The notes under the pieces were generated by a model that saw only the letters and a list, made by a program, of their open reading frames with translations, made no database searches and was not told the origin of the DNA. From Cyanobacteria bacterium REEB446 (lineage in GTDB: Bacteria; Cyanobacteriota; Vampirovibrionia; LMEP-6097), in NCBI GenBank assembly GCA_018970325.1, contig JAGWWP010000001.1:7889-71888 (forward strand): a DNA stretch of 64,000 nt, in the 5' to 3' direction. Shown in pieces: positions 19,321 through 55,124 of this stretch (position 1 is its first letter; every line of letters begins with the position of its first letter). A program made the translations under genes and the position numbers.

Positions 19321-19341
19321 TAAATTAATTAGAGGGCTTAA

Positions 19342-30800: not shown

Positions 30801-31044
30801 AATAGATGAAGGACTCACTTGGTCTCAGACACAAACTTTAATAGATTTACTTGAAGACCCTGCGGGAGCAGCTCACGCCCCTAGTGGGGTAGTAGATCCA
30901 CAGCGTGCAAGAAAGCATGAGCTTTTAAAGGAAGCATTAGCATTTGGTGAGCTTCCTAACACTGTTAGTTTAGATTATCAGCCTCTTAATTATGCTGCAC
31001 TGATGACTCTTTTAAGCTCTGTTAAAGCAGATGGTTCTATTTAA
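27808..31044 (+). CDS. large hypothetical protein (1078 aa) with internal ~200-aa duplication
   Basis: [31 protein letters not shown]... (aa ~164) and [31 protein letters not shown]... (aa ~614) are ~75% identical over ~200 aa. Confidence 0.5.
28297..28900 (+). repeat. intragenic repeat copy A (~600 nt)
   Basis: ~88% nt identity to 29647-30250, offset exactly 1350 nt (in frame). Confidence 0.7.
29647..30250 (+). repeat. intragenic repeat copy B (~600 nt)
   Basis: See copy A. Confidence 0.7.
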
Positions 31045-33906: not shown

Positions 33907-34161
33907 ATGCGCATCACCTTGATTTTAGTAGTCTTATTCACCTTACCCTTGGTAAATAGTTTTTTCGTGAATACGATTACACTCGTGAAAAATATTAGTG
34001 AGTATGTCTATTTAAGGCAGAAGAAGCAGGATTTAATCTGTAAAAAGCAGGATCTTTCTGAAAGGATAAAGACTTTTAATTCTAGTGCGAGTATTAAGAG
34101 GACTATTAAAGAGAGGATTAAGTTAATAGAGGCTAATGAGATTCTTTTGAAGTTGGGTTAG
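33907..34161 (+). CDS. small TM + coiled-coil protein, possibly FtsB/DivIC-like
   Basis: N-terminal TM helix then heptad-like region; weak. Confidence 0.25.
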   Translation: MRITLILVVLFTLPLVNSFFVNTITLVKNISEYVYLRQKKQDLICKKQDLSERIKTFNSSASIKRTIKERIKLIEANEILLKLG

Positions 34162-34202: not shown

Positions 34203-35429
34203 ATGTCTGCTATCTTAAAGCGAGATTTAGAAAAAACGGTAAAAGAATTACTTCAGGATTTTCCGTGTGTAGTACTTTTAGGAGCTAGACAGGTAGGTAA
34301 ATCTACCCTCTTAAAGAAGGTATTGCCAAATGCTGAATTTGTTGATTTAGAGAGAAAAGATACCCTTGAGATGTTGAGCGCTGAGCCAGAATTGTTTTTA
34401 CGAGAAGCTTCTTTGCCTTTGATTATTGATGAAGCTCAATTCTGCCCAGAACTCTTTCCAGCTCTAAGGGTTAAGATAGATGAAGATAGAAAAAAACATG
34501 GACGTTTTTTAATTAGTGGCTCTAGTTCACCGCAGCTTCTTAAAAATATTAGCGAATCACTAGCTGGCAGGGTGGCTATTTTAGAAGTGCCAACTTTAAC
34601 TTGGTCTGAGGCTTTTGAGCTTCGCTCATCTAAATTTTATGATTACTTAGATAAACCTGAAAAATTTATAAATTTAAAAGCACTTTATAAGCTAGAAAAG
34701 CTTCAGGAGTTAGCTTTGTTTGGCCTGTATCCAGAGGCTTTTTTGAAAAGAAAAAAATTAGCATCTTACGATACTTGGGTTAGATCATATTTTGATACTT
34801 ACATAGAAAGAGATATCCGCACTTTATTTCCTAATTTAAAGTTAGACAGTTACAGAAGGTTCATTAAAATGCTGGCTTTCTCTTCTGGTGAGCTTTTAAA
34901 TGCTTCTAGCTTCGCTCGTTCTTTAGATATTTCTCAACCTTCTGTGAAAAATTATATGGAAATAGCAGAAGGGACTTTTCTTTGGCGGCGTTTAGACTGT
35001 TATCGTGAAAATGCAAAAAAACGTCTGGTGCAAATGCCTAAAGGGCATTTAAGAGATAATGTGATTTTAAATTATCTTCTGAATATCAATACTGTAGATG
35101 ATTTGAAGTCTCACCCACAGTTTGGAAGGATTTGGGAAGCTTTTATTATAGAGCAGATTATTAAAAATCTCGATCAGAGACTATATAAACATAAAGAATT
35201 TTTTTATAGAACCCATAATCAGGCTGAGATTGATTTAATAGTTCAGGGACGCTTCGGCTTAATACCTATAGAAATTAAATCTGGATTAAGCGTAAAGAGG
35301 GAGCAGTTAATAGCGATGAAGAACTTTATAGAAGAACATAACTGCCCTTATGGAATACTGATTAATAGTGCAGAAAAGGTTTTAAAGTTATCAGAAAAAA
35401 TATATCAAGTGCCAGTGAGTTTTATTTAA
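34203..35429 (+). CDS. AAA+ superfamily ATPase, DUF4143/COG1373 type
   Basis: Walker A GARQVGKSTL, Walker B IIDEAQ, paralog of 16565-17683. Confidence 0.75.
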   Translation: MSAILKRDLEKTVKELLQDFPCVVLLGARQVGKSTLLKKVLPNAEFVDLERKDTLEMLSAEPELFLREASLPLIIDEAQFCPELFPALRVKIDEDRKKHGRFLISGSSSPQLLKNISESLAGRVAILEVPTLTWSEAFELRSSKFYDYLDKPEKFINLKALYKLEKLQELALFGLYPEAFLKRKKLASYDTWVRSYFDTYIERDIRTLFPNLKLDSYRRFIKMLAFSSGELLNASSFARSLDISQPSVKNYMEIAEGTFLWRRLDCYRENAKKRLVQMPKGHLRDNVILNYLLNINTVDDLKSHPQFGRIWEAFIIEQIIKNLDQRLYKHKEFFYRTHNQAEIDLIVQGRFGLIPIEIKSGLSVKREQLIAMKNFIEEHNCPYGILINSAEKVLKLSEKIYQVPVSFI

Positions 35430-35747
35430 GGTAATGATAGAGAGCTTATTTACTTCTAGAACAAGAAACTCCCTTAGGAACATAGTTTCACCTCGCTATA
35501 TGGATCATGTATTCTCTCAGCTAAAAATTTATTATCAAGAGAAAGGCTCTCCGTTGAAGAGTTTTTTAGCGGACGATCAATAATTTTCTTGAAGTTGCTT
35601 TCCCCTTCTCCAAGGAGTATTTAAGTCTCACCCCCCAAGTCAAGCGTTTATTAAGTAGTCTAAGCAAAGAAATGACGAGAATACAGATTCAAGACGGCCT
35701 TGGATTAAAAGATAAAAAGAGTTTTGGGGGATTTATAAGATTCTTTA

Positions 35748-36826
35748 TTATTCATCTAAAGCCTCAATGCAAGAAAGCATTTGCCGAGGATTAGTGATAT
35801 AAGTATCTTGGCGTTTTTGCTCATCATTAGCAGCGTAAACTAATATCTTTCCATATTTTAAATCGGGGAAGGTTTTTTCAAAGTAATCTAAATTTTTTAA
35901 AAAATCCTTCGTAAAGGTTTCAGCAGATTTGATCTCTATAGGTAAATAACAGTTCCCGATATTATAAATGATATCAATCTCTTTCTGTGAGCCATCTCTA
36001 TAAAAACAAAGATTGTTTTTTTTGCCATTATTATAGCGGTGCTTAATCAATTCATTTATAACTAAATTTTCAAAAAGATTCCCTCTCAAAGGATGACTGT
36101 GAAGGTGTTTCTCTTTCTCTATATCTAATAAATAAGCTGCAAGGCCTGTATCGTAAAAATAGATCTTCGGTGATTTAATAAGCTGTTTTTTAATATTAGT
36201 AAAAAATGGTGGTAGCAGATAAATAATATAGCTAGCCTCTAATATACTGATCCACTCTCTAATAGTGTTGTGTGATACGCCTAGATCGTCTCCGAGGTTT
36301 TGATAGTTAAGAATCTGCCCGACTCGTCCAGCACAGAGTTTCAAAAATTTCTGGAATAAATGTAAATTTTTTAATTCGCTAATCTCTCTTACATCCCTCT
36401 CTACATAGGTTTTTATATAATCTCTCATGAAAGCCTCTACTGGAATGTCCTCCTCGTATAATTTAGGATAACTACCCTTAAAGATAAGCTCATCATAAGA
36501 AGGAGGTTCTTTATAATAACTACTAATTTCTTTTAGGCTGTATGGAAGTAAACTAATAATCGCGGTTCTGCCTGCTAAAGACTGGTTTATGGAGTCTAAA
36601 AGATTAAATTGCTGTGACCCTGTCAGGATAAACATTTCTTTGACTTTTTTTTCGTCGACTATTGCTTGAATATATGAAAGTAAAATTGGCACTCTTTGAA
36701 TTTCATCTAAGATTGCACCATCGGGGTATTGGTTTAAAAAGCTTTCTGGGTCATCCTGTGCGAAGCTTCTCGATTTAGGATGTTCTAAATTAACATAAGG
36801 CTTATTTTTAAAGATCTTTGTTAATC
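35748..36826 (-). pseudogene. N-terminally truncated DUF4143-type AAA+ ATPase (Walker A region missing)
   Basis: Open frame extends upstream of first Met to a TGA at ~36829 and encodes ...PESFLNQYPDGAILDEIQRVP... (Walker B region) but no P-loop. A short out-of-frame MLINKDL* sits at 36832. Confidence 0.45.
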
Positions 36827-36846
36827 AGCATATTTTACTTTTACCC

Positions 36847-36877
36847 AATAAATTGTAAGTAGCACTTACAATTTATT
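36847..36877. promoter_or_regulatory. perfect 14-bp-arm palindrome aataaattgtaagt-agc-acttacaatttatt
   Basis: Read directly; lies between res stop and the truncated ATPase gene. No U-run follows, so operator or non-canonical terminator. Confidence 0.35.
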
Positions 36878-36925
36878 AGATTTCTTTGTTTTATTATATA
36901 GCAGACTTTTGGAAGATTTATAAAT

Positions 36926-39418
36926 TTACCCTCCCATAATCTCCTGTAACTGACACATCTGCGAGTCTTCATGAATGATTACCCCAGTAAATCCGAAGGC
37001 TTCTATAGTCTCATCTAGAGAGGATCTCTCTTGATAGTGCTCACTTAAAAATTCTAATAATTCATGCTTATATTCAGTATCTTCATTACCTCTTAGGTGT
37101 TTACCTTTAGTTTCTATGAGGATATAGTCGAATTTATTTTTCTGCTCAAGCTGTTTTTTAATTAGAAAATCTGGATAAATACGGCGTTTCTCCCAGCCTT
37201 GTAAATAATAGTCCTGACGCTCATTTATTCTATGCCACCAAGCGGTTTTACTGAAATCATATTCGAGCTGAGTTATACAGTTTCTCTCTAATTCATTAAA
37301 CCAAATGGCGTAAAGCGGACTGAAGAGATTTTTTTTCGCGAACTTGCCATCTTTTAACGTAAATTCTTCTAATTCTTTAGGGCTGTCTAGCTCTAGCTCT
37401 CTTGGTATCTCATAATATTCTTCCTGAAGAGAGAATTCTAATTTATTTTCCTTAGACCATTTTTTGAAGAGCTTTTCAGCTTCATTGTAAATTTGTTTTT
37501 GTAAATCTAATTTAATTTCTTCTATCAAACCTAAAGCATCTCTATGTTTACTAATTAGATCTAGATGAGGTTTTAGGATATCGTAAGCTATCCATGCGTT
37601 GGGGATTAGGTCTTTAAATTTCTGTAAAATATAAATCGCCTCTAGTGGAGCCTTTTCTCTATTTAAATTTTTTTCTATCGCATCTATATCGAAAAGTTTT
37701 AAAGTCTCTGAATCACGGTCACACACTATCTTTTTAATAGTATCGAACTGATCTGAATTTTCATAAGAGCTAAGCTCTTGTCTGAGCTTGATTTTAGACC
37801 AGTCTATTTCTGGGAGTATATGTTCTATCCAGTTAAATTCAGTAGATTCACCCGATTCTAGTTTTAAAGTTATTTTTGGAAGATAAATTTTGTCTTCTTT
37901 AAAATTTTCTTTTCTTTTGATTTTTACTTTTCTCGGATTTAGATTTTTTTGGGCTTCTGGATTATTTTCATCTTGAGTTCTTAGGGAGTTTTTTATATCG
38001 CCGTAACCATGCTCTTCTAAAGACTTCTTAATTCCATCTGCAACCTTTTTAACATTACTGTTAAACATATAAACGAAGCTTTCATTTAATTCAGGATAAT
38101 CTGGAATCTGTTTAGTATAAGGCTGCCGTAGGATTCGACCTAGCATTTGAGTTAAGGCTGTTTCAGCAAGGGTAGTATCTAAATTACATAATATATAAGC
38201 GAAAGGACAGTCCCAACCTTCTGCTATGGCATATCTCGTAATAATGTATTTAATTCTACACTTATGACTACGAAGCTCTATTTTCTCCAAATCATCTTTC
38301 TCAGAGGATTTAATGGCGATTTCTTCTAAAGGTATTCCAGTCTTTAGTAAGTAGTCTTTTACATCTTCTGCATGAATGTACTTAGAGTCTCTTGTGTCTT
38401 TCCCCGTTCTTTGAACTCGAATTAGCATGATGGGGCGAATATATACATCATCTTCTGCCTGATTCATTTCTGCGAATTTATCTAACTGCCTCAGCTTTTC
38501 TAAAGATCTATCTAAGCAGGTATTCCAGTTATTTCCAGCGGTCTGGGTTACAGTTATAGGCATCTTAATCATCTGTTCTTTCCAGAGATCGAAGCCCTTA
38601 GCTTCATAGAGAATGCTAGATCTCTCTGAGGGAGTGGCACTGAGTTCTAGAATAAAAGAAGGATTAAAATTAATAATATTTTCTTTTGCTTTGTCAGTTT
38701 TCTGTCTATGAGACTCGTCTAGAATAAATAGAGGCTGTTCTATGCGTATAAGATTAGCGAGAGAGTGCTTAATAGTGGTGTTAGGGAACTGTTTATAAGT
38801 GATAACGCTTTCACTGAAGCTATCTAAGTTCGGGAAGTTTTTTTTCAGGAAAAAATTATCACCAGCTTCAGTATATTCAGGAAAATAATTCGAGTAGAGA
38901 GCTGAATCATCGTAGATCTTACGCTTATCCTTAGTCTCCTTACCGATATTAAAAGATTGTATAGTTAGAACTAAGACGCAGAGATGAGTTTCTAAGTCAT
39001 TTTTCGTAATGCGACTCTCTTTATTAAAAATCTTCAGTTTACCGAAGGCACTATTCTTAAGGCTTACATGTAAAGGATGCTGAATATCATTTAACTGCTT
39101 TAAAGTCTGTTTGTAGATAGTATCAGAAGTAGTCACCCAGATTACTAAGCCACTGTGTTTTTTATAAAAATATTCTTGGATTTTTTCTATGCAGTGTGCT
39201 GCTAGATAGGTTTTACCGCCACCTGTAGGTAATTTAAAGCAGACTTTAGGTATGGGTTTGCCGTTAATATTCCTAACATTATGATAAGGATATTTTCTTT
39301 GGACTCCTTGAAAAGAACGTTCTATATCATCATGAAATTTGTATAGATTTTCTATAAATATAGCTAAATGCTCTAAAGCTTCTCTTTGATAGGATTTTAG
39401 CTCAAAAATACTTGCCAT
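36926..39418 (-). CDS. res: Type III restriction enzyme, Res subunit (helicase-nuclease)
   Basis: Walker A LPTGGGKTYLAA, DEAH-box ILDESHRQ, C-terminal PD-ExK nuclease motif RIYPDFLIKK...YILIETKGK; immediately downstream of mod. Confidence 0.85.
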   Translation of the reverse strand: MASIFELKSYQREALEHLAIFIENLYKFHDDIERSFQGVQRKYPYHNVRNINGKPIPKVCFKLPTGGGKTYLAAHCIEKIQEYFYKKHSGLVIWVTTSDTIYKQTLKQLNDIQHPLHVSLKNSAFGKLKIFNKESRITKNDLETHLCVLVLTIQSFNIGKETKDKRKIYDDSALYSNYFPEYTEAGDNFFLKKNFPNLDSFSESVITYKQFPNTTIKHSLANLIRIEQPLFILDESHRQKTDKAKENIINFNPSFILELSATPSERSSILYEAKGFDLWKEQMIKMPITVTQTAGNNWNTCLDRSLEKLRQLDKFAEMNQAEDDVYIRPIMLIRVQRTGKDTRDSKYIHAEDVKDYLLKTGIPLEEIAIKSSEKDDLEKIELRSHKCRIKYIITRYAIAEGWDCPFAYILCNLDTTLAETALTQMLGRILRQPYTKQIPDYPELNESFVYMFNSNVKKVADGIKKSLEEHGYGDIKNSLRTQDENNPEAQKNLNPRKVKIKRKENFKEDKIYLPKITLKLESGESTEFNWIEHILPEIDWSKIKLRQELSSYENSDQFDTIKKIVCDRDSETLKLFDIDAIEKNLNREKAPLEAIYILQKFKDLIPNAWIAYDILKPHLDLISKHRDALGLIEEIKLDLQKQIYNEAEKLFKKWSKENKLEFSLQEEYYEIPRELELDSPKELEEFTLKDGKFAKKNLFSPLYAIWFNELERNCITQLEYDFSKTAWWHRINERQDYYLQGWEKRRIYPDFLIKKQLEQKNKFDYILIETKGKHLRGNEDTEYKHELLEFLSEHYQERSSLDETIEAFGFTGVIIHEDSQMCQLQEIMGG

Positions 39419-39422
39419 AAAT

Positions 39423-41195
39423 TTAATCCTCTGAATCTTCTAGGTTATTTAAGACGTTAGCGGAATTGATTTGTAAGTACTGATAAGGGATTTGGCAGAT
39501 AATAGGTTTTTTCGTATACTTCTCTTTCTCAATAAGGCTTTTAATGCTTTTATTATCCACATAAATAGTGACAGCATAAATTAGTGCCTGATAGCCATTA
39601 TCACAGTCTTTTAGAATCTGCTCTAGCTTAGAGCGGCTTAAAGCATAATCGTGGTGCTTCAGTTTCTCTTTATCAGCACTGTATATTAGATAGAGTTTAT
39701 AGTTTTCGGTTTTACCGATGTAATGTGAAGCGTTTTCTGTTACGTTACTTAAAGCTTGATTAGTAGTGTGATAAAAAAGGTAGCTAGCAAGTGCCTCATA
39801 GCTAGGTAAGTCTTTTTCTAAAAATAGAGTATTTAAATGTAAAGCTTCTCCTAACTTTACTACGGTGAAGCTGCCGCCTAGACCTTCTTTAAGCTTAGGG
39901 TCTTTAGCTGTTGCTACACCTTCTATGCAGCGACGGATTCTTGCAGTGGTGATTTCGAAAATGTTTTTGAAGCCTTGCTTGGAGGCTTCTTCTGATTCTT
40001 CAGGCTGTTGTATTAGAATAAACTTCCTGCTTCCACCATCTTCTTTATTCATTTCTAGGACAGCGTGTCCAGTGGTTCCTGAGCCTGCGAAGAAGTCTAG
40101 GATTAGAAAATCTTTATCAAAGTCAGCTAAACTATTTAACAAGTGTTTGAGTAAATAAACAGGCTTAGAATAATTAAAGACAGGCTGTTCAAATATTTCT
40201 TTTAAATTTTCAGTTGCATTCTCGTAATTAAAAGATTTTTCACTGAGTATGGATCTTATTTTTGAGATTTTATTTTCCTCAAAGTAGATTTTTTCAAATA
40301 CGTCAAATCTTTTTTCACTCTTATTCTTAACAACTCTAACAATTAATTTGTTGATTTCTTTATTTACGGTATCTTTAGACCAACGCCATCTACCATCCTC
40401 ACCGTTAGATAGTTTAGGTAATATCTCTATAGCATTATTAGATTTTCTTTCTGTTGAAATTTCTGAGTTTTGTGCATCATAAAAAATAGGGAAATATTGA
40501 TTAGGAGCGTCACTCCTCTTTGAGTCAGCTCCACGTTTTCTGAGACCCCTTTCTTCATAAGCTTTTCCTTGATTATCAGATTTGTTATAATTTTCAATAC
40601 CTTTAATAAAACCAAATGGTAAAAGATTTGTTTTTAACTTACTGAAGCAAAGAATATATTCATGCTCAGATGCCGTGTGTTTCTTGGCTTGGTTACCACG
40701 GGGATTAGATCTTACCGTGAAAGTCTCTATATAATTATCTTCATCGAAAATTTCATCAAGCATGATTTTTATATGAAAAAATTCAACATCATTAATACTA
40801 ATAAAAATGACTCCGCTTTCTGAGAGCAGTTCCCTCGCTAATACCAAGCGTGGATACATCATACAAAGCCACTTATCATGCCTTTGTAGATCTTCTTTAC
40901 CGACCACGTTTCCAAGCCAGCTCTTTATCTGAGGGCTATTTAGATTATCGTTATAAACCCAATTCTCATTTCCAGTATTATATGGCGGGTCTATATAGAT
41001 GACATCAACTTTAGAAGCGAATTTGGGGATTAGAGATTTTAAAACTTCTATATTATCACCTTCGATAATCAAATTATCATCTAGACTGGGTTCTGGACTT
41101 AAGCTATCCTGCTGATCTATCTTCAGCTCCCTAACTGCTAGTGAGTGATGATAATTTATTACAGCGTCTTTTCCTTCCCAGATTAGTTCAGGCAT
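39423..41195 (-). CDS. mod: Type III R-M DNA methyltransferase, Mod subunit (beta-class N6A/N4C MTase)
   Basis: Motif [14 protein letters not shown] precedes motif [12 protein letters not shown] (beta-class order); mod-res gene order. Confidence 0.85.
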
Positions 41196-41289
41196 GATTT
41201 TCTCCCACGAATATGTAAGAGCCTAGGATTATGTCCTAGACTATGGTTTAGTTAATGATTACTTTAGTGAAAATACTAAAGTTTAAGGA

Positions 41290-41530
41290 AAGCTATTTAA
41301 TTTTTTATATCATTAAATAGCCGGGAGTTGATAAATCGCTACAGGACGACTACTGCAATCTTTAAGCCCGAAGGCTTTGGACATGCATTACAGTCTCCCG
41401 GCTTTTTTAAAACCGAGAGATATCGTTTTGACAGTCGGATATCTCTATCGACTGCCTGTAGTGAGGCTATCAAACCCCAAGGCTCTTTCCTTAAAAAGAA
41501 CCTCGTTATGAATTATAAACTAAGTTGAGC
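41290..41530. repeat. conserved ~240-bp structured element, copy 1 (candidate ncRNA / regulatory module)
   Basis: ~90% identical to 53822-54060 in the same orientation. GC hairpin agccgggag(41329-41337)...ctcccggc(41395-41402) followed by TTTTTT. Compensatory pairs between copies: ctacagg/cctgtag vs ttacaag/cttgtaa. Confidence 0.7.
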
Positions 41531-41683
41531 TGTTAGCTAAAAAGTTTATTGAACTAGAATCAATGAACGCCTCTTATATATTCGATTTGATAGGCTATGA
41601 ATTAGTATCAGCTGATCTTGAGTAAATCTTCACAGAAAACCTGAGCCATACAAAAGCTGAAGAGCAGTATAATTACAAAAAGA

Positions 41684-45498: not shown

Positions 45499-45539
45499 AA
45501 TAATTTAAGATGTCTTTAAAAAAGCTACACGCTCAGAAT

Positions 45540-48500
45540 TCATTTTAAATCTTCTATTAATTTAGCCAATGCTATTCGATCAATCCACTCAATATTATGT
45601 TCTTGACTCATGCGACTTAATTCAGCCTGGTGACAATCTTTGTAGGTGCCATTCGTGATAAACATCGCTCTATCAATATTATAATAACTACTGTAGCTCT
45701 TTAAAACTTCGGGAAAACTCATTAATTTATTACGATCTCCGTAATCTTTACCCCCGTGTACATGTTTAACCTGTGCTGCGATTTGTTTGCCATTTTCATC
45801 ATCGAAAATAAAATCAACTCCAATATCTCTAGGTTTTTTGACCACATAACCTTTCTTTTCAAAAATACGCCTAATAATTTTCTCAAACTCTAGTCCCTGT
45901 TGGCTTTTATTTTGATATTTAATAGAATCTATCTCATCTAAAGAAGGAATTTTACTATCTGTATCTGTCTTGGGGTCTAGTTCTTTACTCATTTCTTTTA
46001 AGATGTCTCCTTCTGAAATATTTTGTGTATAACTCAAATCAAAGAGATTTTTTCTAGCTGTACGCTTTATTTCTAGCCTATCGTGAAGATTTTTCTCAAA
46101 AGTATGCTCTGCTACGAAATAGTACACATAAACATTTTTCTTCTGTCCCGTTCTATAAGCTCTACATGTAGCTTGATCTTCGACTGCGGGATTCCACCAA
46201 CGAGTTAGATGCAGCACATGATTAGCTTCTTGGAGGTTTAAACCCATACCAGCACAGCGTGGTGATAGAACTAAAGCTGAAAAACCATTTTCTGCCTGAA
46301 ATTTCTTTAAATTATCTTTTTTATCTTCCTCTGAAAGTTTACTGTTAATAGGAGCTAGACTTAAATTAAAATGATCGTTAATGAAGTCCTGGACTGCTTC
46401 TTGATAATGATTATATTCACAGAAAACTAAAGCTTTTTCATTTTTTTTCTTTATGTCTTTTAGTAAGTCTTTTAATTTACCTAAACGATCATTTTCAGTA
46501 AACCATTCTTGGAAATGAGGTTTAGTATAAATCTTGCCATTAGCAAGAAACCTATGTATGGAAGATTGTTTAATTAAACCTACTTTTTTCAGAGCAGGAT
46601 ATTTGCTTTTTAAAATACTATGTATGTGTTCCTCAGATTCTTCTTCAAGTTTAAAGGAAACGTTCGTTGAAACTAGTTCAGGGAGATCTTTCTTTAATTC
46701 AGGATCTTCTTTTAGCCGACCATTGGCATAGCCTTTAGTGAAATTGCCAAATTCTAGGCTTGTAATCAGATCTTTAAAACAACGTTCTCTTTCGCTATCT
46801 GGTAAATCTTGGTTAAAAAAAGCTTGATATTTTTTCCTAAAATCTTTTAATGATCCTAAAAGACCTGCATGAGAGCTATCCATAATATTCCAAAGCTCAG
46901 ACATATCATTTTCGATAGGTGTTCCACTCATGAGAATTTTAAAAGTAACATTAGTCGCTATCGCTTTTAATACAGTAGATACCTGCGTTTTAGCTGACTT
47001 AGCTTTTTGTACTTCGTCGCAGAGTAATAATGACCATGGAATTTGAGCGAAAGAATGCTGATAATTAACCATGGTGTCATAGGTGATAATGATGCATTTA
47101 TGTTTTAAAAGTAAATTTTTATCTAATAAAGGATAGCCTAGTTTCCCTTCAGGGACAGCTTTAGCACTGCTATCTCGGAAATATTTTTTAGGAGAAATCG
47201 ATTTAGCAGCTGTTTGAGAACCATGTAAAATAGTAAAATCAAATTCTTTACTATCTATAAAAAAATTTTTAGCTTGCTCCTCGAAGTTATCTAAAAGTAT
47301 AGGTGGAACTACTATTAAAATAGGCTTAAAATCTGTTTCGGGGAAACGCTTTTGCCAAATAGATCTCATTAGTAGTTTAATGAAACACATGGTCTGAAAA
47401 GTCTTACCTAAGCCCATATCATCAGCTAGAAGCACACCTGGATACGAAGCCATAAAGCAGTTTACCAACCATTCTATACATTGTTTTTGATAAGGGAAAA
47501 TATTAATCCCATCTTTCGTATCGATTAAACTCCAGTCTAAATGGGTGTTTAACTCATCAGTACTTTGTCTTTCATCATATTCTCGAATTTCGGCATTAGT
47601 CTGAATAATCAGTGCTTTATCATTCTCTGCTTTAGGAATGTTTTCAGAGTTAGTTTCTGCTTTTAGGCTTTTTTGAAATAATTTACTACCTTTATCTAAG
47701 CAGCTATTTATATAGTGAAAAGACTCTTGGCGCGTTATATCTAGTTCGACCTCATCACCTGTTTTGCTATCTTTTAGAAGATAGCTGCGTTGTGATTCTT
47801 TCGCTGCTAATTTAAGGTCTTCTTTAGCAATATTTAAATCTTCTTGATTGAGAAAAACGCTTTTATTTTCCTCTCCTTGATTTGAGTTGCCTAGATTAAT
47901 TTTTATAAAATTATCATCCTCTAAAATGACAGCATTTTGCTTATTATCTGCTTCTATAAGCTCATCCATGCCATCGAAAATTGTTTTCTGTTGAACTTTA
48001 CCAAACTGTCCTGGGATGACTATCGGTTTACCGATTCCTATTACTCTAGGACCGTATTGGCTAACATCTAGATTAAAAATATTATAGAACTCTGGAAGCT
48101 CTTTTAGAATTGAGCTATCAGAGTGATATTTTAATTTCTCAATTATTTCATCACTCGCCTTATGGTGATAATCGGTCTTTAATTTAAGGAGAGCCTTTTT
48201 AGTAGAGGGATTTAAGCCTAAATCTATATTCTCACCATTCGCTGTCCTAATTTTTATAGTATTGGACTGGGTATCCCAGATTCTTAAGCCTCTTTGTATC
48301 GCTTCTAAAGCTTTTTCTGTGCTTTCATATTTTAAAACCTCGCCTAACTCTTCATTAAAGGGTACTAAAGATGCTAAGTCTTCACTGCTACTAACTTCTA
48401 GAGATTTAGTGGCATATAAGTCGAACTTATTATAATGAAATATTTTTATGTCACTCAGTCTTAAATCATTTAGTAAAAGTGAATTATCACTATCATGCTT

Positions 48501-49193
48501 AGTAATCCATTCATGCACTTTCTGTAAAGCACTTATGATAACTGGATTATTCGCTGACCAGAGTTCCTTTTGATTTATATAACTATCAAAGAGTTGGTAA
48601 ATCCAGTATGGTAATACTGTAAGAGACTGCTTTTTAGCCTTAAGATTTAAATCTAAAATTAAGCCATTTTCTTTAACTTTATCTGTAATATTTTGAAAGC
48701 CATTTTCAGTTTTCATTGAAAGCCATAGCTCTACTTCACTACCGCTAAATTCAGCGGTTACTTTAAATTCTTTATTAGTGTTTAAGACAGGAAAATAATC
48801 TAAGATTTTTCTATCCTCATCTAAAGCTATTTTCAAGCTTAGAGTACCTTCACCTTCGCTATCTTCCTCCTCTTCCTCAGAGCTAAAATTAATTCCTAAA
48901 GTCTCAGCAGTTTCTTTATCTAAAGAGCTTTTCTGTAAATTAATTAGAAAATTATTTTTTAAATTCTCGTAATTTATAAAATAATCGCCATTATCATCAA
49001 TGTTGAAAAAATTTTTATTGTTTAAAACATTATAGATACTCAGATCGTCATGGAATGCCTTTTCTAGACTTAATCTTAGACCATGAAACACGGGCTTTAA
49101 TCTGAAGCGAGTCTTTAAAAAGCTTTTCCCTGTAGTTTTATTAGAACTCTTTTTTTTGAATAGATCTAAAAAGGCATTTAATGAACTAGGCAT
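45540..49193 (-). CDS. zorD: ZorD-like: SNF2-family helicase with C-terminal Mrr-type restriction endonuclease domain
   Basis: SNF2_N LLADDMGLGKTFQTM, DEVQ box LLCDEVQKAK, helicase C motifs, C-terminal Mrr_cat-like GLEFEKIIRRIF...IGVDFIFDD...QVKH; last gene of zorABCD-like operon. Confidence 0.6.
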   Translation of the reverse strand: MPSSLNAFLDLFKKKSSNKTTGKSFLKTRFRLKPVFHGLRLSLEKAFHDDLSIYNVLNNKNFFNIDDNGDYFINYENLKNNFLINLQKSSLDKETAETLGINFSSEEEEEDSEGEGTLSLKIALDEDRKILDYFPVLNTNKEFKVTAEFSGSEVELWLSMKTENGFQNITDKVKENGLILDLNLKAKKQSLTVLPYWIYQLFDSYINQKELWSANNPVIISALQKVHEWITKHDSDNSLLLNDLRLSDIKIFHYNKFDLYATKSLEVSSSEDLASLVPFNEELGEVLKYESTEKALEAIQRGLRIWDTQSNTIKIRTANGENIDLGLNPSTKKALLKLKTDYHHKASDEIIEKLKYHSDSSILKELPEFYNIFNLDVSQYGPRVIGIGKPIVIPGQFGKVQQKTIFDGMDELIEADNKQNAVILEDDNFIKINLGNSNQGEENKSVFLNQEDLNIAKEDLKLAAKESQRSYLLKDSKTGDEVELDITRQESFHYINSCLDKGSKLFQKSLKAETNSENIPKAENDKALIIQTNAEIREYDERQSTDELNTHLDWSLIDTKDGINIFPYQKQCIEWLVNCFMASYPGVLLADDMGLGKTFQTMCFIKLLMRSIWQKRFPETDFKPILIVVPPILLDNFEEQAKNFFIDSKEFDFTILHGSQTAAKSISPKKYFRDSSAKAVPEGKLGYPLLDKNLLLKHKCIIITYDTMVNYQHSFAQIPWSLLLCDEVQKAKSAKTQVSTVLKAIATNVTFKILMSGTPIENDMSELWNIMDSSHAGLLGSLKDFRKKYQAFFNQDLPDSERERCFKDLITSLEFGNFTKGYANGRLKEDPELKKDLPELVSTNVSFKLEEESEEHIHSILKSKYPALKKVGLIKQSSIHRFLANGKIYTKPHFQEWFTENDRLGKLKDLLKDIKKKNEKALVFCEYNHYQEAVQDFINDHFNLSLAPINSKLSEEDKKDNLKKFQAENGFSALVLSPRCAGMGLNLQEANHVLHLTRWWNPAVEDQATCRAYRTGQKKNVYVYYFVAEHTFEKNLHDRLEIKRTARKNLFDLSYTQNISEGDILKEMSKELDPKTDTDSKIPSLDEIDSIKYQNKSQQGLEFEKIIRRIFEKKGYVVKKPRDIGVDFIFDDENGKQIAAQVKHVHGGKDYGDRNKLMSFPEVLKSYSSYYNIDRAMFITNGTYKDCHQAELSRMSQEHNIEWIDRIALAKLIEDLK

Positions 49194-50754
49194 AATTAAT
49201 TTCTTCTCCAGTCTTAGGGTTTCTAGGGGTTAGCTCATATAGCTCTTTCATCATGCACGTAACGGACTCATTCCAAAAGCGATTACTACGACTAAAACGC
49301 CAGTGAGGAGATCTCCTGAATGATGCTTGATCTTTTTTTGCATCGTAAACTATATCTGTAAAAATGAAATAATCTCTAAGGCGAATTGGTACACTGATAT
49401 TTTTACCGAAATAAGTGTCATAAAACCTTAGAAGGATCTTCTCATTCTCAGAAAGAGAAGGTTTGTTTTTTATAGAGTTAATATTATAGACATATGCAGC
49501 AGTACCAGTGTCAACTGTTTCGAAAATCAATATTTGATCTATTTTGAGAACGAAAGATGTTAAAGAAGAGTGATTTAAAATTGGCTCTATAAATAAATCA
49601 ATATCTTTTTTTTCAGTTAATTTTTTAAATTGATTTATTTTATATCGATCAGGTAAAAAAATTCTAAAATCATCAGCATAGTATAAATATCTTTGCCAGC
49701 ACTCTTTACGCCCATGTTTATCTGGAGAGTCTTTAAAGGCAAACTCAAAGAATAAATTAAAGTCTTGTTCATTAAACCAATAGCGAATTTTTTTATATAC
49801 CCCTTCGTCACTTTCCTGTAGGATCTGCCACTCAGATTTATTAATACGAGGATCACCTAGTTTATTTTTTGTAAAAGACTTTATTTCGCTCTTTTCTCGT
49901 TCATTAATATTCCACTCTATTGTTTTAAATAGCTTAATAAAGCGCTCACAGCCTTTTCTGGAACGTAGATGAGTAAAAGCATGTAAAATATTTTTAAATA
50001 GATCGAAATTAGAGCGATTAGCCAAGTATTTTTCTAAAAGATAATGGAAGTATTTAGATAGAAGATGATCTATAAAAGAATCATTAGGAAAGAATTTCAC
50101 ATAAAATTTATTAGAGGCTATTTCTAAAATGCTTTCTGATAAATTTTCATCATTAATACTCTGATTTTCTAATAAAATAAATATTTTTTCTGCCTCTGCC
50201 TGAAAGTAGACTTGTTCACTTTTTTCTTTTCTATAAGTTTCAAAATCAAGTAGCAGTGAGTGTTTTTCAAACAGATTATTAATCTGTATTTTAGAATTAC
50301 TAAGTTGGAAAAACCAATCCTCTAAAAGCTCTAACCAAAAATCATCTTTAAATTCATAGTCCTCATTTAGAATTTGAAAACGCCAAATATAGTCATTAAG
50401 CCATCTTAATAAGATACGCTGCGGTTCCTGTCTTTTAATTAAATTTCTGAATTCTAATTCATCTTCAAGACCAGACATAGAGAGACCTAGACGAACTATG
50501 GTTTTTTTAATCTTTATATCATCAGGGTTTTTAAGATATTTTCCCCATTCAGTTTTTAGATCTCCAATCTTAGTTAAGCTAATAGTGTTAAGAGACTTAG
50601 TCTTTAGTTTTCTCAAGCGAGTAATTAATGGATTGAAATGTTTAATTACGTAAGTATTATGGTGATTGAAAAATTCAGAGCTAAAGTGGGAATACTCATT
50701 TGAAGCATCTAAGAGCTTGCTTAGAGATTCTTTGATTTTTAAAACTACACTCAT
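49186..50754 (-). CDS. zorC: ZorC-like protein (unknown function)
   Basis: Size (522 aa) and position between MotB-like and SNF2 genes with overlapping start/stop codons; no motif verified. Confidence 0.4.
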   Translation of the reverse strand: MSVVLKIKESLSKLLDASNEYSHFSSEFFNHHNTYVIKHFNPLITRLRKLKTKSLNTISLTKIGDLKTEWGKYLKNPDDIKIKKTIVRLGLSMSGLEDELEFRNLIKRQEPQRILLRWLNDYIWRFQILNEDYEFKDDFWLELLEDWFFQLSNSKIQINNLFEKHSLLLDFETYRKEKSEQVYFQAEAEKIFILLENQSINDENLSESILEIASNKFYVKFFPNDSFIDHLLSKYFHYLLEKYLANRSNFDLFKNILHAFTHLRSRKGCERFIKLFKTIEWNINEREKSEIKSFTKNKLGDPRINKSEWQILQESDEGVYKKIRYWFNEQDFNLFFEFAFKDSPDKHGRKECWQRYLYYADDFRIFLPDRYKINQFKKLTEKKDIDLFIEPILNHSSLTSFVLKIDQILIFETVDTGTAAYVYNINSIKNKPSLSENEKILLRFYDTYFGKNISVPIRLRDYFIFTDIVYDAKKDQASFRRSPHWRFSRSNRFWNESVTCMMKELYELTPRNPKTGEEINYA

Positions 50755-51479
50755 TTGTTTAAATCCTTGAGATTAGACTGTAGAGCAGCACGCTGTTCAT
50801 TAGATTTTACTCTTATCGTGATTTCTACTCTGCGACTAGCATCACGATTGATATTTAAGAAATTAGGATCATTTTTTATAGAGTTAATATTTAATAACAC
50901 TGAATTCCAGTCCGCACTATTCATGAGTTTAGTACCATATTTTAAATCCTGTTCTCCACGCCCAATTAAATATAGCCACGCCAAGAGAGTTTCATATCTT
51001 GCTTGAGTGCTTGGATTTTTTTGATAATGACTTAAAATATAAGTGCCGATACTTAAAGAACGATTTTGGCTTAAATCTAAATTATTATTATCGTCTCCTA
51101 TATCATCAGTAAATCCTTCTATGTAAACACCTTGAATATAATCTCTATATTTCTCATTTCCCATCAGTATTTCAATAACACGATTAATAAAAATCTGATT
51201 TAAAAACTTTTCACAGTCTTGATTACAGGAATCGCTAGCTGTAAGAAATTTTAACTTATCTTCTTTAACTTCTATAGTACAGGCTAAAGGATCATCTTTC
51301 TTAATGACACAAGATAGATCATCGTTTTTTAGTTCTTTATTAATCTTTTTACTAATCTCTTCAATTTTCGTTATACTGCCTCTAGCGTTATTCTGAGTGA
51401 GAGCTAGCATCAGCATAATAAACACAACCGCTAAGGAGGTCATTAAATCAGTCATTGAGGATTCTAATTTAAGTGCCAT
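50751..51479 (-). CDS. zorB: ZorB-like: MotB/OmpA-family protein (N-terminal TM anchor + OmpA-like peptidoglycan-binding domain)
   Basis: TM helix LMTSLAVVFIMLMLAL; OmpA-like motif VYIEGFTDDIGDDNNNLDLSQNRSLSIGTYIL. Confidence 0.6.
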   Translation of the reverse strand: MALKLESSMTDLMTSLAVVFIMLMLALTQNNARGSITKIEEISKKINKELKNDDLSCVIKKDDPLACTIEVKEDKLKFLTASDSCNQDCEKFLNQIFINRVIEILMGNEKYRDYIQGVYIEGFTDDIGDDNNNLDLSQNRSLSIGTYILSHYQKNPSTQARYETLLAWLYLIGRGEQDLKYGTKLMNSADWNSVLLNINSIKNDPNFLNINRDASRRVEITIRVKSNEQRAALQSNLKDLNK

Positions 51480-51494
51480 AAATTAAAACTTTTA

Positions 51495-53765
51495 TTATTT
51501 GGCACTCCACTGGCTACTTGTAATAGAATCTTCAAGATTTGAAATCAAAGACTGTAAATGACTAATTGCTTCTGTGTGCTGTTTGCTAAAGTCATTGAAA
51601 TACCCTTGCCCAGCATCTTTGATTTTATTAATAGATGAGGCCATTGATTCACCAGCTTTACCAAACTCATTAGTTATATCTAGTGTTAATTTATTAATTG
51701 CTTGGTAATCCTTATGTAATTGATCACTAGTACTTTGATGAGTTTTTAATAATTCCTTCTGCTCTTGCATGGCTGTTCTTAATAGATTTAGCTGCTCTTT
51801 GAAGTCCACATCCTTTTGCTCACTAGCTATGGTGATTTTATTTTGGAGTTCTATGAGCTTATCCATGGAATTCTGGATTTTTATAGATTCCTCTCTTAGT
51901 GCACTTACTCGCTGTAAATATTCACTTAATTCGGTAAGTGAGCTTCTTTGCGTTGCTGTCAGTTCATTTTGTTTATTAATGAAATGTGAGAACTCATTAT
52001 TTAATAAATTAGTTAACTTATCGAAAGCATAGTTTAATTGAGCTTGAGCGTTATTTAACTGCTCAGGCATAGATAGTGCTTGTCTACTTAAAATATCAAT
52101 ATTATTTTTTAACTCATGTAAAACGCTCTCTAGATTATCTTTTAAGCTGCTCATGCTACTAGTGAAGCTATGCTCCAAGTTTTTAATCTGAGATTCGTGT
52201 ACACTAGTGTTCTCTTGCTGCATTCTGTTATGATCTTCCTGAAAGCTTCTTGAAGAATTTTCAAAGATATTCTTCATCTCGAATAATAATTCACTACTCA
52301 ACTTAGAATTAGCTTCGCTAAGCTCAAAAATTTTATTAGTAATAAATTGCATACCTTCAGTGTGTTTACGTTGCATTTCATCTTGTTGAGTTACCAGATT
52401 AGCTGTTAATTCCTGATTTCTCAGCATAATATTCTCTAAAAGCTGATTTAGATTAGAACCTTGCTGATTATGTATCTCTTCAAAAAGATTTTTTACTAGA
52501 TCTGACATCTCACGCTGTGAATCAGAGAGACTTAATTTCATTTCAGCTGTAGATTTAGACATATCACCCAGTAAAGATTCCATAATCTCAGGAAGCTTTT
52601 CCATAGTGGTTTTCAAAGCCTCTATATCACTATTTAAACCTTTGGTAAGACTCTCTCTAAGTTCCTGTCCTATAGTACCTAAATGCTCAGACATACCATT
52701 CAAACCTGCCGCACTAAAATCTTTCATTGAATCGGAGACTTTAAACATCTCATCTTTTATATCTGTCACTAAATTTTTAACTCCAGATGTCTCATTTTTA
52801 ATATCTGAAACTGCATTTTTTACACTTTCTTCAATTGATTTCTCTATATTCTCCAAAATACTGCCAGTACCTTTAGTTTTATGAAAATAGCTTTCTATCT
52901 GACCAGGTATTTGTTTAATATCTTTCTGCATCACTATGAGTAAATCCTGAGTGGTTAATCGCCTGAAATTTCTATTCAACTCATAGATAATGCTAGACAG
53001 AGTTTCATGCATTTCATGCTCTTTATTTTTAATAGTGATCTCTGCATTAATGGCTAAAATCAAACCTACTATACTGGTAATAAATTTTGCAGATAGTGCA
53101 TTAATAAAATCATCTAAGCCTGTTATATCCCCCCCTCCTGCTTCCTGTCTGACTACACTCAAACCAGCAGTAAGAGCGATAAAAGTAAAAAGCAGTCCAG
53201 TACTGGTAAAGAAGCTAGGATAATGCTTCAGTCTAAATACATAAGGACTTACTATAGTATTAACTTTAAAAAAATCTTCAGCTTGATAGACATTCATTAG
53301 CTGTTCTTTATACTCATGCACGCCCTCAGAAAACTCTTTCCATGCATGTTCTAGACTAATATACATAGAACTTTGAAGATTTGTCTCAGAATATGGTTCG
53401 TCAAAGTATTTATTGATTTTCGCTTTAAGTTCATAAGAACTATGCGATTCTTTTATGAGCTGATAAAAAGCTTTTAAATCCTTTATCCCAGATTCTGTTT
53501 CAGCTAAATTTGCTTGATAGGGATTACTATTTAAATTTAAAACTTTTATTTTATTTTTACATGCAAACCAGATGGAAGCCAAAAAGCCATAAATGAGTAT
53601 AAGCACTGTAATCTTAATACCAAAAATACCAGAGCTGGAATCTTGATTACCATTCCACCAATTTATAAACTGACTTGACCACGTCCGAGGATCACACAGG
53701 AACAGCGTTAAATCAAGATTTAAAATTTTAAAAATATTAAACTGTGGTAACAATGTAGAACTCAT
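51495..53765 (-). CDS. zorA: ZorA-like: MotA/ExbB-type membrane protein with ~500-aa C-terminal helical/coiled-coil tail
   Basis: TM helices (ILIYGFLASIWFAC; GLLFTFIALTAGLSVV; ITSIVGLILAINAEITI) resembling MotA/ExbB core, then long heptad-rich tail; 15 bp upstream of MotB-like gene. Confidence 0.55.
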   Translation of the reverse strand: MSSTLLPQFNIFKILNLDLTLFLCDPRTWSSQFINWWNGNQDSSSGIFGIKITVLILIYGFLASIWFACKNKIKVLNLNSNPYQANLAETESGIKDLKAFYQLIKESHSSYELKAKINKYFDEPYSETNLQSSMYISLEHAWKEFSEGVHEYKEQLMNVYQAEDFFKVNTIVSPYVFRLKHYPSFFTSTGLLFTFIALTAGLSVVRQEAGGGDITGLDDFINALSAKFITSIVGLILAINAEITIKNKEHEMHETLSSIIYELNRNFRRLTTQDLLIVMQKDIKQIPGQIESYFHKTKGTGSILENIEKSIEESVKNAVSDIKNETSGVKNLVTDIKDEMFKVSDSMKDFSAAGLNGMSEHLGTIGQELRESLTKGLNSDIEALKTTMEKLPEIMESLLGDMSKSTAEMKLSLSDSQREMSDLVKNLFEEIHNQQGSNLNQLLENIMLRNQELTANLVTQQDEMQRKHTEGMQFITNKIFELSEANSKLSSELLFEMKNIFENSSRSFQEDHNRMQQENTSVHESQIKNLEHSFTSSMSSLKDNLESVLHELKNNIDILSRQALSMPEQLNNAQAQLNYAFDKLTNLLNNEFSHFINKQNELTATQRSSLTELSEYLQRVSALREESIKIQNSMDKLIELQNKITIASEQKDVDFKEQLNLLRTAMQEQKELLKTHQSTSDQLHKDYQAINKLTLDITNEFGKAGESMASSINKIKDAGQGYFNDFSKQHTEAISHLQSLISNLEDSITSSQWSAK

Positions 53766-53777
53766 CCACTCTCTCCG

Positions 53778-53805
53778 TTATTAACTATCTAATGTTTTAG
53801 TGCAA
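53778..53805 (-). promoter_or_regulatory. putative sigma70-type promoter for zorA operon
   Basis: Minus strand reads TTGCAC-16 nt-TAATAA, then GGAGAGAG RBS before the ATG; weak. Confidence 0.2.
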
Positions 53806-53821
53806 GCACTAAGATTGAAAA

Positions 53822-54060
53822 AAAGCTATTTAGAAATTTATATATTATTAAATAGCCGGGAGTTCATAGACCGTTACAAGACGACTACTGCAATCTTTAA
53901 GCCCTAAGGCTTTGGACATGCATTACAGTCTCCCGGCTTTTTTAAAGCCAGGAGATATCGTTTTTACAGTCGGATATCTCTATCGACTGCTTGTAAAGAG
54001 GCTATGAAACCCCAAGGTTCTTTTAAGGAAAGAACCTCGTTATGAATTATAAACTAAGTG
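53822..54060. repeat. conserved ~240-bp structured element, copy 2
   Basis: See copy 1; lies between zorA start and the stop codon of the degenerate Fic gene. Confidence 0.7.
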
Positions 54061-54071
54061 AGAGATCGCTA

Positions 54072-55124
54072 TCACTGAAAATAATTTCTTACAGCAAATT
54101 CAAACTGTTCAATGAAAAGCTCTTTGAGATACAGAAGGTTATTTCTTTCATAAAAAAGTATCATCGCTTTTTTATATTCAGTCTCATCAATGCTTCTGTA
54201 GGAGAGAGGGCAGTAATTATAAGCCAGTAGTAAGGCATTGCTAGTAATGCGACTAGTTCTTTTATTACCGTCCTCAAAAGCTTGGATATAGGAAATAAGT
54301 GCAGAGCAGGTTAAAGCTTTAGTGAATGGCTCTTTAATTTTATTTACAGTCTCAGATAGGCTTTTAATCGAATCACTAATCTGGAAAACATTATCTAAAG
54401 GCTTATAATTCGTTCCTGTAATTCCGACCAAACTATTTCTGAAATTAGGATTAATGTATAAGCCCTTAGTTAGCATGCTGTGCAATTCAATAATTTTATT
54501 CGGCGTAATTTTTTTAAAGTAAGCAGGTTTTTCTAAGATGTACTCTAGAGCGTGTTTATGATTCAGTAACATTTTTGCTTCTTCTTTGCTATGACCTTTA
54601 GCTTCGATGCCGACTTTAAAAAGAGTTTCTGTGTCTAATAATGAATAAGTATTCCCCTCTATCTGTGAGGATTTCCATGAAAGATCTATAGTTAATCTTT
54701 CGAATTCTTTTCTTATAATAGTTTTACTGTGTTGTTTTAAATTACTTCTATAAGTATTATTTAATTGCTCAATGTGTTCTAACTCACTGCTAGAGAAGAT
54801 TTTCTCAGATACTTTATCTATGAGTTTGAAAATATTAAAATTAAAACTCTCTTCTATAAATCGTTTATCAGGAATAACTGAGAAGTATTGTTTGATATTG
54901 ATTGGCTGAATCAGTTTATATAGTGGTGAAAGTTTGTAAACAGTATTCTTACCTTCTCCATATCTGATTATTAAATCAAGTTTTAATAAATAGGTTAAAT
55001 CTCTGTTTAAGGTAACTCTAGATATAGATTCATTTAATAATCTCTCTATGCTTGCTATATCAAGTTCAGAATATTTTAAAAATAATTCTAAGATTGTTTC
55101 CTGCCGAGGATTTAACTTAAACAT
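54072..55124 (-). CDS. Fic-family protein with N-terminal wHTH and degenerate active-site motif
   Basis: Fic core with motif position reading YIQAFEDGNKRTSR instead of HPFx(D/E)GNGRxxR (His, Pro and second Gly replaced). Confidence 0.55.
   Translation of the reverse strand: MFKLNPRQETILELFLKYSELDIASIERLLNESISRVTLNRDLTYLLKLDLIIRYGEGKNTVYKLSPLYKLIQPINIKQYFSVIPDKRFIEESFNFNIFKLIDKVSEKIFSSSELEHIEQLNNTYRSNLKQHSKTIIRKEFERLTIDLSWKSSQIEGNTYSLLDTETLFKVGIEAKGHSKEEAKMLLNHKHALEYILEKPAYFKKITPNKIIELHSMLTKGLYINPNFRNSLVGITGTNYKPLDNVFQISDSIKSLSETVNKIKEPFTKALTCSALISYIQAFEDGNKRTSRITSNALLLAYNYCPLSYRSIDETEYKKAMILFYERNNLLYLKELFIEQFEFAVRNYFQ

Follow-up and report, generated by a model that had tools for sequence, protein, structure and literature searches.

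The interval between the core genes orf84-ffh-ftsZ and nuoL in Cyanobacteria bacterium REEB446 is very probably a variable, core-flanked defence hotspot, in which two mechanistically unrelated operons follow copies of one structured RNA. It lies in a 64,000-nt stretch of contig JAGWWP010000001.1 (positions 7,889 to 71,888), referred to here as the window. The two operons encode a Type III restriction-modification (R-M) system, mod-res, and a type I Zorya system, zorABCD. The order nuoL-orf84-ffh-ftsZ would be ancestral in the Caenarcaniphilales lineage (Vampirovibrionia, 'Melainabacteria'). The site would then have gathered its modules: DUF4143 ATPases, Type III R-M, a TrlF/Ppl-like ATPase with an AlbA_2 partner, type I Zorya and a Fic-like gene. 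In sister strains the cargo includes an AriA/PtuA-like ATPase with a DUF4435 protein, an AbiD fragment, nucleotidyltransferase (NTase)/BrnA toxin-antitoxin genes and a third DUF4143 gene. Taken as a whole, an explanation that combines a variable hotspot, homologous exchange and a structured leader RNA is likely to be right.

The window proteins were mapped onto the corresponding loci of relatives (L numbers), with one genome per species in the scan for Ffh. The relatives fall into groups with Ffh identities of 98-99% (three metagenome-assembled genomes, MAGs, one of them, at 99%, being 'Vampirovibrionia bacterium'), 71-72% ('Candidatus Caenarcanales' and 'Melainabacteria' MAGs) and 55-57% (further Melainabacteria). 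This comparison of the ffh-nuoL interval, proposed in the initial annotation, found an empty site in distant relatives and different cargo in close strains. In L014 (Ffh 72%), nuoL is followed after 517 bp by orf84-ffh-ftsZ, and homology with the window stops at 55242; in L017 (Ffh 55%), nuoL and orf84 are 89 bp apart. A single MNT-type nucleotidyltransferase occupies the nuoL-orf84 interval of L023, and 3.4 kb of other cargo, a split DUF4143 gene and two open reading frames (ORFs), that of L015 (Ffh 71%). L013 (Ffh 98%) carries a 3.4-kb insert that encodes an AriA/PtuA-like ATPase, a DUF4435 protein and an AbiD fragment; it sits precisely in the 41 bp of spacer that separate orf84 from the first DUF4143 gene (DUF4143a). 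Island homology breaks in this spacer, after the orf84 stop codon, and the second DUF4143 gene (DUF4143b) and res are present as fragments only. L060, at the start of a 212-kb scaffold, has DUF4143a (99.3% identical at the nucleotide level), an intact 454-aa AlbA_2-type gene and scraps of DUF4143b, then zorDCBA directly; the window segment ~36912-45546 (res, mod, RNA copy 1, the Ppl-like gene and AlbA_2) is absent, an 8.6-kb indel. At the nuoL end, the RNA is followed by a third-type DUF4143 gene and nuoL in L059, by Fic, DUF4143 and nuoL in L054, and by an NTase fragment, BrnA, DUF4143 and nuoL in L071; the Fic gene is present in L054 and absent or replaced in L059 and L071. Whole systems are present or absent between strains whose flanks are 93-99% identical.

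The DUF4143 and Fic genes had been taken to delimit the island. Both vary among relatives, so the conserved borders are orf84 and nuoL, and the DUF4143 and Fic genes are variable cargo. The designation as a defence hotspot, made from three different systems, holds with a higher count. At least two recognised defence systems are clustered (Type III R-M, Zorya I, PDC-S01 and Ppl-like, all PADLOC matches), and there are more than three candidates: PDC-S01, Type III R-M, TrlF/Ppl-like with AlbA_2, Zorya I and the Fic-like gene. The suggested check of composition gave a divided answer. Total G+C content is lower in the island (0.328 versus 0.356), through codon positions 1 and 2, but that at third codon positions (GC3) is the same (0.268 versus 0.277 in the rest of the window, p = 0.88). 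Composition was on this account rejected as a sign of foreign origin; the equal GC3 points instead to exchange among relatives. The same figures could be read as those of a stable, vertically inherited core cluster that is no island at all, with GC3 and codon-position composition as in the rest of the window. Exact-protein look-ups fit that reading too, since they found the left part of the cluster alike in some ten metagenomic samples from one population. Empty or differently filled sites, and systems that come and go between nearly identical flanks, make it most improbable.

Two features of the comparison weigh against the hotspot reading. All relatives are represented by contigs from MAGs or metagenomes, of which many are short and break off at the repeat, and no complete genome has the entire site of a second strain. 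Moreover, the relatives in which the site is empty are fairly distant ones (Ffh 55-72%). Comparable hotspots, with several anti-phage systems between fixed core genes and with size and content varying greatly from strain to strain, are cDHS1 and cDHS2 of Pseudomonas aeruginosa and those of the E. coli pan-genome, the latter described in the available part of PMC10121019. Detectable mobile genes are missing from 29% of the cDHS1 sites and 47% of the cDHS2 sites of P. aeruginosa (PMC10250203). The present island differs in its uncultured vampirovibrionian host, in its flanks (orf84/ffh and nuoL), in having no tRNA or tmRNA, and in the structured RNA common to two of its operons. It is a genuine island of an ordinary kind, a core-flanked defence hotspot without mobility genes.

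The RNA was first noticed as a pair of direct repeats of about 240 bp. The repeats are real, 87.6% identical over 267 columns and 12,533 nt apart, but each is ~263 nt long. A 25-mer of the repeat occurs exactly twice in the window versus 0 expected. Folding of the minus strand gives z scores of -8.0 and -6.5 for copies 1 and 2, versus -4.2 and -6.0 for the plus strand. A covariance model (R1) was built for a 182-nt core with eight helices and run with filters off over the whole window, and over all relatives' loci. In the window it finds exactly two copies and nothing else above 20 bits. In the relatives it finds copies upstream of zorA in L054, L055, L059, L060-62 and L071, in L066 a full-length but divergent copy (135.9 bits, E 6.5e-32), and in L065 a copy cut by the end of the contig; the 3' half that is present has the sequence of copy 2 ('type 2'; copy 1 is 'type 1') and belongs with a ZorA only 55% identical. 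No further copies were found in the window or in the relatives' loci. A scan of JGI metagenomes with a 20-mer of the RNA yielded five real loci, and more were reached through ZorA homologues and their contigs.

In the alignment of distinct copies, 97.6% of the cells are paired, and compensatory changes on both sides occur in 16 of the 68 pairs. None of 500 column shuffles reaches this level, and sliding the 3' partners by 1-3 columns leaves at most 3 such pairs. The alignment holds 25 G-U cells versus 3 A-C cells, which identifies the minus strand as the folded one. The repeat can thus be read, with a high degree of confidence, as a structured RNA encoded on the minus strand; a point against this is that the covariation comes from three lineages only (type 1, type 2 and L066). 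The RNA is new as a family and absent from Rfam: searches of Rfam 15 with the window, copy 1 and the L066 copy gave no family at gathering or E-value thresholds. The best sub-threshold match, sRNA-Xcc1 (26.8 bits versus a threshold of 53), was taken as chance. Three exact or degenerate patterns of the RNA gave 0 matches in IMG/VR viral contigs, and blastn of the RNA against plasmid and phage collections gave none. The distant zorA operons of L068, L069 and L070 have no RNA upstream, so the RNA is not a general feature of Zorya.

Two other readings of the repeat were discarded. Coding on the plus strand was rejected because the ORFs there (41 aa and 29 aa) are not of the same length in the two copies. 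An att-site or integron attC reading was rejected on the size, the multi-branch fold, the G-U bias and the absent integrase. Within the RNA, the hairpin loop of helix 1 is inverted between the copies, UUAAGG (window 41483-41488) versus CCUUA (54019-54023), with the stem kept. The core also contains, on the minus strand after a GGGAG, an 8-codon ORF, MHVQSLRA-stop (41378-41404 and 53912-53938), and the L066 copy has (GUG)SVQSFRA-stop in the same register (~1572-1598). This ORF may encode a leader peptide, or may simply result from the conservation of the helices. The Logan contigs of five Zorya operons (L063, L065, L067, L069 and L070) start 88-220 nt upstream of zorA. The contigs of L063 and L065 are broken within the RNA itself, a sign that the RNA may be multi-copy in these two genomes as well.

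The placement of the RNA is as regular as its fold. In every context it has the orientation of the downstream gene, which is mod or zorA in the window, zorA in L054, L055, L059, L060, L065 and L071, and a gene for a TM2/zinc-ribbon protein in L066. The distance from core to start codon is 81-128 nt across contexts. Copy 1 ends 68 nt before the mod start and copy 2 ends 31 nt before the zorA start (93 nt from the core). Copies of the window lineage share an invariant TTAGTTTATAATTCATAAC at the 5' start, which holds a TATAAT box. In the window copies this box is followed by the core, one or more hairpins with a U-rich tract, a ribosome-binding site (GGGAG in copy 1) and the start of mod or zorA. 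In L066 it is not zorA that the RNA precedes but the TM2/zinc-ribbon gene, 1 kb away on the other strand. A hairpin follows the core there, then a canonical terminator (12 bp, with a U-tract), the ribosome-binding site AAGGGAG and the ATG. Alternative pairings can be read from the sequences. The 3' strand of helix 6, CCGGGAG, can pair with a neighbouring CUCCCGG or with another CUCCCGG that ends the core on its 3' side, and the alternative pairing with the 3' element covaries in L066 (ACCGGGAG / CUCCCGGU). The CUCCC at the 3' end is also complementary to the downstream GGGAG ribosome-binding site.

Structure, placement and alternative pairings together are read as a leader that switches structures, which would gate termination and/or translation of the downstream defence operon. 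From sequence, a cis-acting regulatory role has about an even chance, and the response to a signal, whatever might be sensed, is suggested more tentatively. The RNA resembles riboswitch or attenuator leaders in being a multi-helix domain on the same strand as the genes that follow, succeeded by a terminator (L066) or by a U-rich hairpin and a ribosome-binding site, and in having pairings that would be mutually exclusive. It differs from them in that it stands before defence or membrane genes instead of metabolic genes and that it has no Rfam match; a regulatory role here is proposed from sequence. To our knowledge, RNA-level control of Zorya or of Type III R-M is undescribed, and the literature search found no paper containing both 'Zorya' and 'riboswitch' that describes such an RNA.

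Several features do not sit easily with a leader. The terminator-like hairpin of the window copies is AT-rich and was not detected by the scan, and a promoter-like site separates RNA copy 1 from mod. Alternatively, the element may be a stand-alone small RNA that has a promoter and a terminator to itself. On that account each repeat would be a copy of an independent small RNA gene acting in trans, such as an antitoxin-like RNA, a defence non-coding RNA or the remnant guide-type RNA of a decayed mobile element. Besides the promoter-like site, it would fit the conserved TATAAT box, the end in a hairpin with a U-rich tract, and the much stronger conservation of the RNA than of the neighbouring genes. 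It would leave without reason the constant orientation and start-codon distance in at least seven contexts and before three unrelated downstream genes. It would also have to pass over the complementarity of the core 3' end to the ribosome-binding site, where that end competes with an internal copy of itself for one partner; such complementarity with a competing pairing is typical of leaders. Moreover, no transposase, TnpB/IscB-like or toxin gene is adjacent. An independent small RNA is hence judged unlikely. The repeats are best read as primarily copies of a functional structured RNA ahead of mod and zorA, rather than as scars or att sites. As a tentative further step, at somewhat less than even odds, they may represent leaders of a new, signal-responsive class, either riboswitch-like or bound to a protein or an RNA, which would gate unrelated anti-phage operons and act as a portable 5' adaptor for cassette exchange; the adaptor role is proposed because conservation is far stronger in the RNA than in the genes that follow it.

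Sharp breakpoints within genes and operons are read as traces of exchange between strains. L001 and L003 (674-1223), from the same population, have another sequence in place of the central target-recognition segment of mod (40107-40728), between flanks that are 96-99% identical, and a Mod of 566 aa versus 590 aa. The target-recognition domain appears to have been exchanged here. In L047 and L048 the nucleotide identity to the window is 99.9% from the Ppl-like gene through zorD, 73% in zorC and 88-90% in zorB and zorA. The L060 proteins are 97% (ZorD), 57% (ZorC), 76% (ZorB) and 91% (ZorA) identical to those of the window. In 100-nt bins, the region upstream of zorA is 97-100% identical between strains, and zorA itself 50-80% within its first few hundred bases. 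The island would, with fair probability, turn over by homologous recombination among related strains. The core flanks, the shared island genes and the repeated RNA module would serve as anchors, and a dedicated recombinase would be needless, the breakpoints being as from homologous exchange between related genomes. Turnover of this kind would account at once for the absent mobility genes, a GC3 like that of the host, the remains of pseudogenes and the abrupt changes in identity.

The claim that no integrase or transposase is present was confirmed: every interval ORF of 45 aa or more could be assigned, and none has an integrase, recombinase or transposase domain. A scan of the window found no tRNA or tmRNA. 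With neither these nor terminal repeats of the whole island, the interval has the make-up of none of the mobile elements considered (integrative and conjugative element, prophage, satellite, integron). The repeats had also been named as the only candidate recombination substrates. That proved too narrow, as the core flanks and shared genes are candidates as well, the L060 indel lies off the repeats, and breakpoints fall inside mod and the Zorya operon.

The repeats may nevertheless recombine, for two operons with the same leader make the leaders double as direct repeats. Types 1 and 2 of the RNA are three compensatory pairs apart, in long-range helices. In L057 and L058 the RNA is a chimera, with the Ppl-proximal half of type 1 and the zorA-proximal half of type 2, which joins zorA directly to the Ppl-like gene and breaks exactly the pairs that covary between types 1 and 2. 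A zorA-RNA-Ppl junction is that expected of recombination between copy 2 and copy 1, in an excised circle or a tandem duplication. The junction could also be an assembly mis-join across the invariant core, which counts against its use as evidence of exchange. In the sister strain L071, with a 97% identical zorA region, the order is the ordinary zorA-RNA-...-nuoL.

This junction invites the view that an integrated mobile cassette makes up the 12.5-kb segment RNA1-Ppl-AlbA2-zorDCBA-RNA2, with the repeats as attL and attR. The cassette would be excised as a circle and integrated in Campbell style, through either homologous recombination at the repeat or site-specific recombination by an enzyme whose gene lies elsewhere. 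Direct repeats do flank exactly this segment, as in integrative elements with attL/attR, and the circular or tandem junction occurs in two independent assemblies, L057 and L058, next to the ordinary order kept in L071. Compared with such elements, however, the repeats are long (263 nt), only 88% identical and RNA-encoding. Their eight-helix RNA fold, with its covariation and its strand-specific G-U pairs, speaks against the view. They also occur singly upstream of zorA without the Ppl module (L059, L060 and L071) and upstream of an unrelated gene in L066. No recombinase is encoded in the island, the L060 indel is not bounded by repeats, and the junction contigs may be assembly chimeras. A mobile cassette is accordingly rated as quite improbable. 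Nor are the repeats general cassette borders, given that the 8.6-kb L060 indel ignores them.

The gene map (Table 1) was drawn from the ORF listing and from Pfam, PADLOC and NCBIfam scans of the window, and it upheld the gene content and order given earlier for 34203-55124.

Table 1. Features of the defence hotspot and of its core flanks, in window coordinates.
Feature	Position	Strand	Remarks
ftsZ	31037-32290	-	left flank
ffh	32336-33886	-	left flank
orf84	33907-34161	+	left core border; kept beside ffh or nuoL in relatives with Ffh identity 55-99%
DUF4143a	34203-35429	+	intact AAA_14 + DUF4143; PADLOC PDC-S01 1e-97; Walker A GARQVGKS
Decayed remnant of a second AlbA_2/HATPase_c_4-type gene	35434-35725	+	homologous to the intact 454-aa gene of L060 (10298-11662) and to L011 fragments
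DUF4143b	35748-36692	-	N-terminally truncated; AAA_14 profile positions 77-128 only; without Walker A
res (Type III restriction subunit)	36926-39418	-	PADLOC Type III 3e-150; GGGKT, DESH, C-terminal PD...ExK
mod (Type III methyltransferase)	39423-41195	-	PADLOC Type III 4e-111; DPPY at 69, FAGSG at 369
Structured RNA copy 1 (type 1)	41263-41525 (core 41323-41505)	-	covariance model 204.9 bits
Ppl-like: PHP-like (HLH) + ABC/SMC-type ATPase	41684-44347	+	NCBIfam TrlF family; PADLOC Ppl 2.7e-39, full length
AlbA_2 (Schlafen-like) + HATPase_c_4 protein	44335-45498	+	Pfam/PADLOC; 13-nt overlap with the preceding ATPase gene
Type I Zorya operon	45540-53765	-	zorA 51495-53765, zorB 50751-51479, zorC 49186-50754, zorD 45540-49193; transcribed zorA to zorD
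Structured RNA copy 2 (type 2)	53796-54059 (core 53858-54039)	-	covariance model 220.1 bits
Fic-fold gene	54072-55124	-	degenerate active-site motif QAFEDGNKRTSR; catalytic His absent
nuoL (NADH-quinone oxidoreductase subunit L)	55264-57198	+	right core border; 672 bits versus cut-off 556

The Zorya genes have the composition of a type I system: zorA, zorB, a zorC with the EH signature and a zorD with SNF2 and nuclease domains, in a single operon. PADLOC matches were obtained for ZorA (1e-17), ZorB (1e-27), ZorC (9e-8) and ZorD (4e-124), and the Pfam domains are OmpA, EH_Signature, and SNF2-rel_dom with Helicase_C and Mrr_cat. As in known type I Zorya, the order is zorA-zorB-zorC-zorD, ZorA is MotA-like, ZorB is MotB/OmpA-like with an Asp before the transmembrane helix, ZorC has the EH signature, and ZorD combines SNF2 with an Mrr-type nuclease. 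The window genes match the components as described in the available parts of 10.1101/2023.12.18.572097 and PMC11890865. The operon is unlike known ones in the great divergence of its sequences, in the mosaic alleles within one population and in the structured RNA ahead of it. ZorA and ZorC fall far below the NCBIfam cut-offs (58.7 bits versus 190 and 24 bits versus 490); they are classed as divergent members of type I Zorya.

The R-M genes have the Type III arrangement, with Mod, a beta-class N6/N4 methyltransferase in which DPPY precedes FxGxG, followed by Res, a superfamily 2 helicase with a PD-ExK nuclease motif; the two genes are spaced 4 nt apart on one strand. The ATPase encoded at 41684-44347 passes the curated TrlF cut-off (524.8 bits versus 350) and falls short of that for Ppl (157.7 bits versus 1000). 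With Ppl, a single-gene PHP-ATPase anti-phage protein, and with TrlF ATPases it shares a full-length alignment to the Ppl profile, a PHP-like N-terminal HxH, and ABC/SMC-type Walker A and B motifs. It differs from Ppl in belonging to the TrlF family by that cut-off and in its probable translational coupling to an AlbA_2/HATPase_c_4 gene, with which it is probably co-transcribed because the two genes overlap.

DUF4143a has the full-length AAA_14 domain with Walker A and the DUF4143 domain that define PDC-S01, and it is 98-99.8% conserved in L011, L013 and L060. DUF4143b, which lacks the first ~76 AAA_14 profile positions, has no such make-up. It is intact (392 aa) in L008 and L011 and reduced to mere scraps in L013 and L060. 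It had been described as a truncated paralog; the truncation is real, whereas at only ~28% identity DUF4143a and DUF4143b are members of one family and not recent paralogs. In L011, the closest MAG, a ~450-bp piece of AlbA_2-type pseudogene lies on both sides of intact DUF4143b (1846-2264 and 3808-4303), which looks as if DUF4143b had been inserted with a long duplication. The Fic gene is degenerate, as proposed: its motif QAFEDGNKRTSR (QAFEDGNKR) stands in place of the HxFx(D/E)GNGRxxR of Fic AMPylases such as SoFic. A second Fic gene of the window (3666-4934) has the canonical HPFLDGNGR. Exact-protein look-ups of Fic and nuoL returned no record. The orf84 protein has an N-terminal hydrophobic segment followed by a charged, coiled-coil-like tail. 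The odd GC3 of this ORF raised the possibility of an antisense gene, which was rejected on the many stop codons in the antisense frames and on the conservation of the sense protein.

Other genes of the window are defence-like or evolve fast. A second defence-like cluster at 16565-21933, between enolase and an AcrB/HlyD efflux pair, consists of a DUF4143 ATPase gene (16565-17683), an overlapping SIR2_2 gene (17647-18960) and, on the minus strand, a KAP-family NTPase gene (19342-21933), of which L024 has only a part. This is the part of the window with the lowest G+C content (0.30-0.31). Between nuoL and nuoC, the gene at 57399-59240 encodes a 613-aa P-loop NTPase with the Walker A motif GQTGVGKT and weak nSTAND3/AAA_22 matches. 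It is 72.7% identical to its L059 counterpart, versus 98.6% for nuoL and 96% for nuoC, and is absent beside nuoL in more distant relatives; it may be another fast-evolving or defence-type gene. Beside ftsZ, a 1078-aa protein (27808-31044) has no Pfam match and gives overlapping internal matches in relatives, indicative of a repetitive architecture; it is only 28-89% conserved, versus 80-98% for the adjacent FtsZ.

Hotspots without mobility genes are already known in Proteobacteria, and their occurrence in an uncultured, non-photosynthetic relative of the cyanobacteria extends this pattern without changing it. The new part is the RNA, an eight-helix structure supported by covariation, which stands before two mechanistically unrelated defence operons of one island and also ahead of Zorya operons whose proteins are only 55% identical. 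It bears on the question of how costly or toxic defence systems are held in check. If it is a regulator, it would provide a concrete, testable handle on the control of defence. If it is a new class of leader, the defence island would have a shared, RNA-level 'on switch' for Zorya, Type III R-M and a TM2/zinc-ribbon membrane protein. It also suggests a route by which cassettes could be swapped without a recombinase, with a conserved regulatory module serving as the homology arm.

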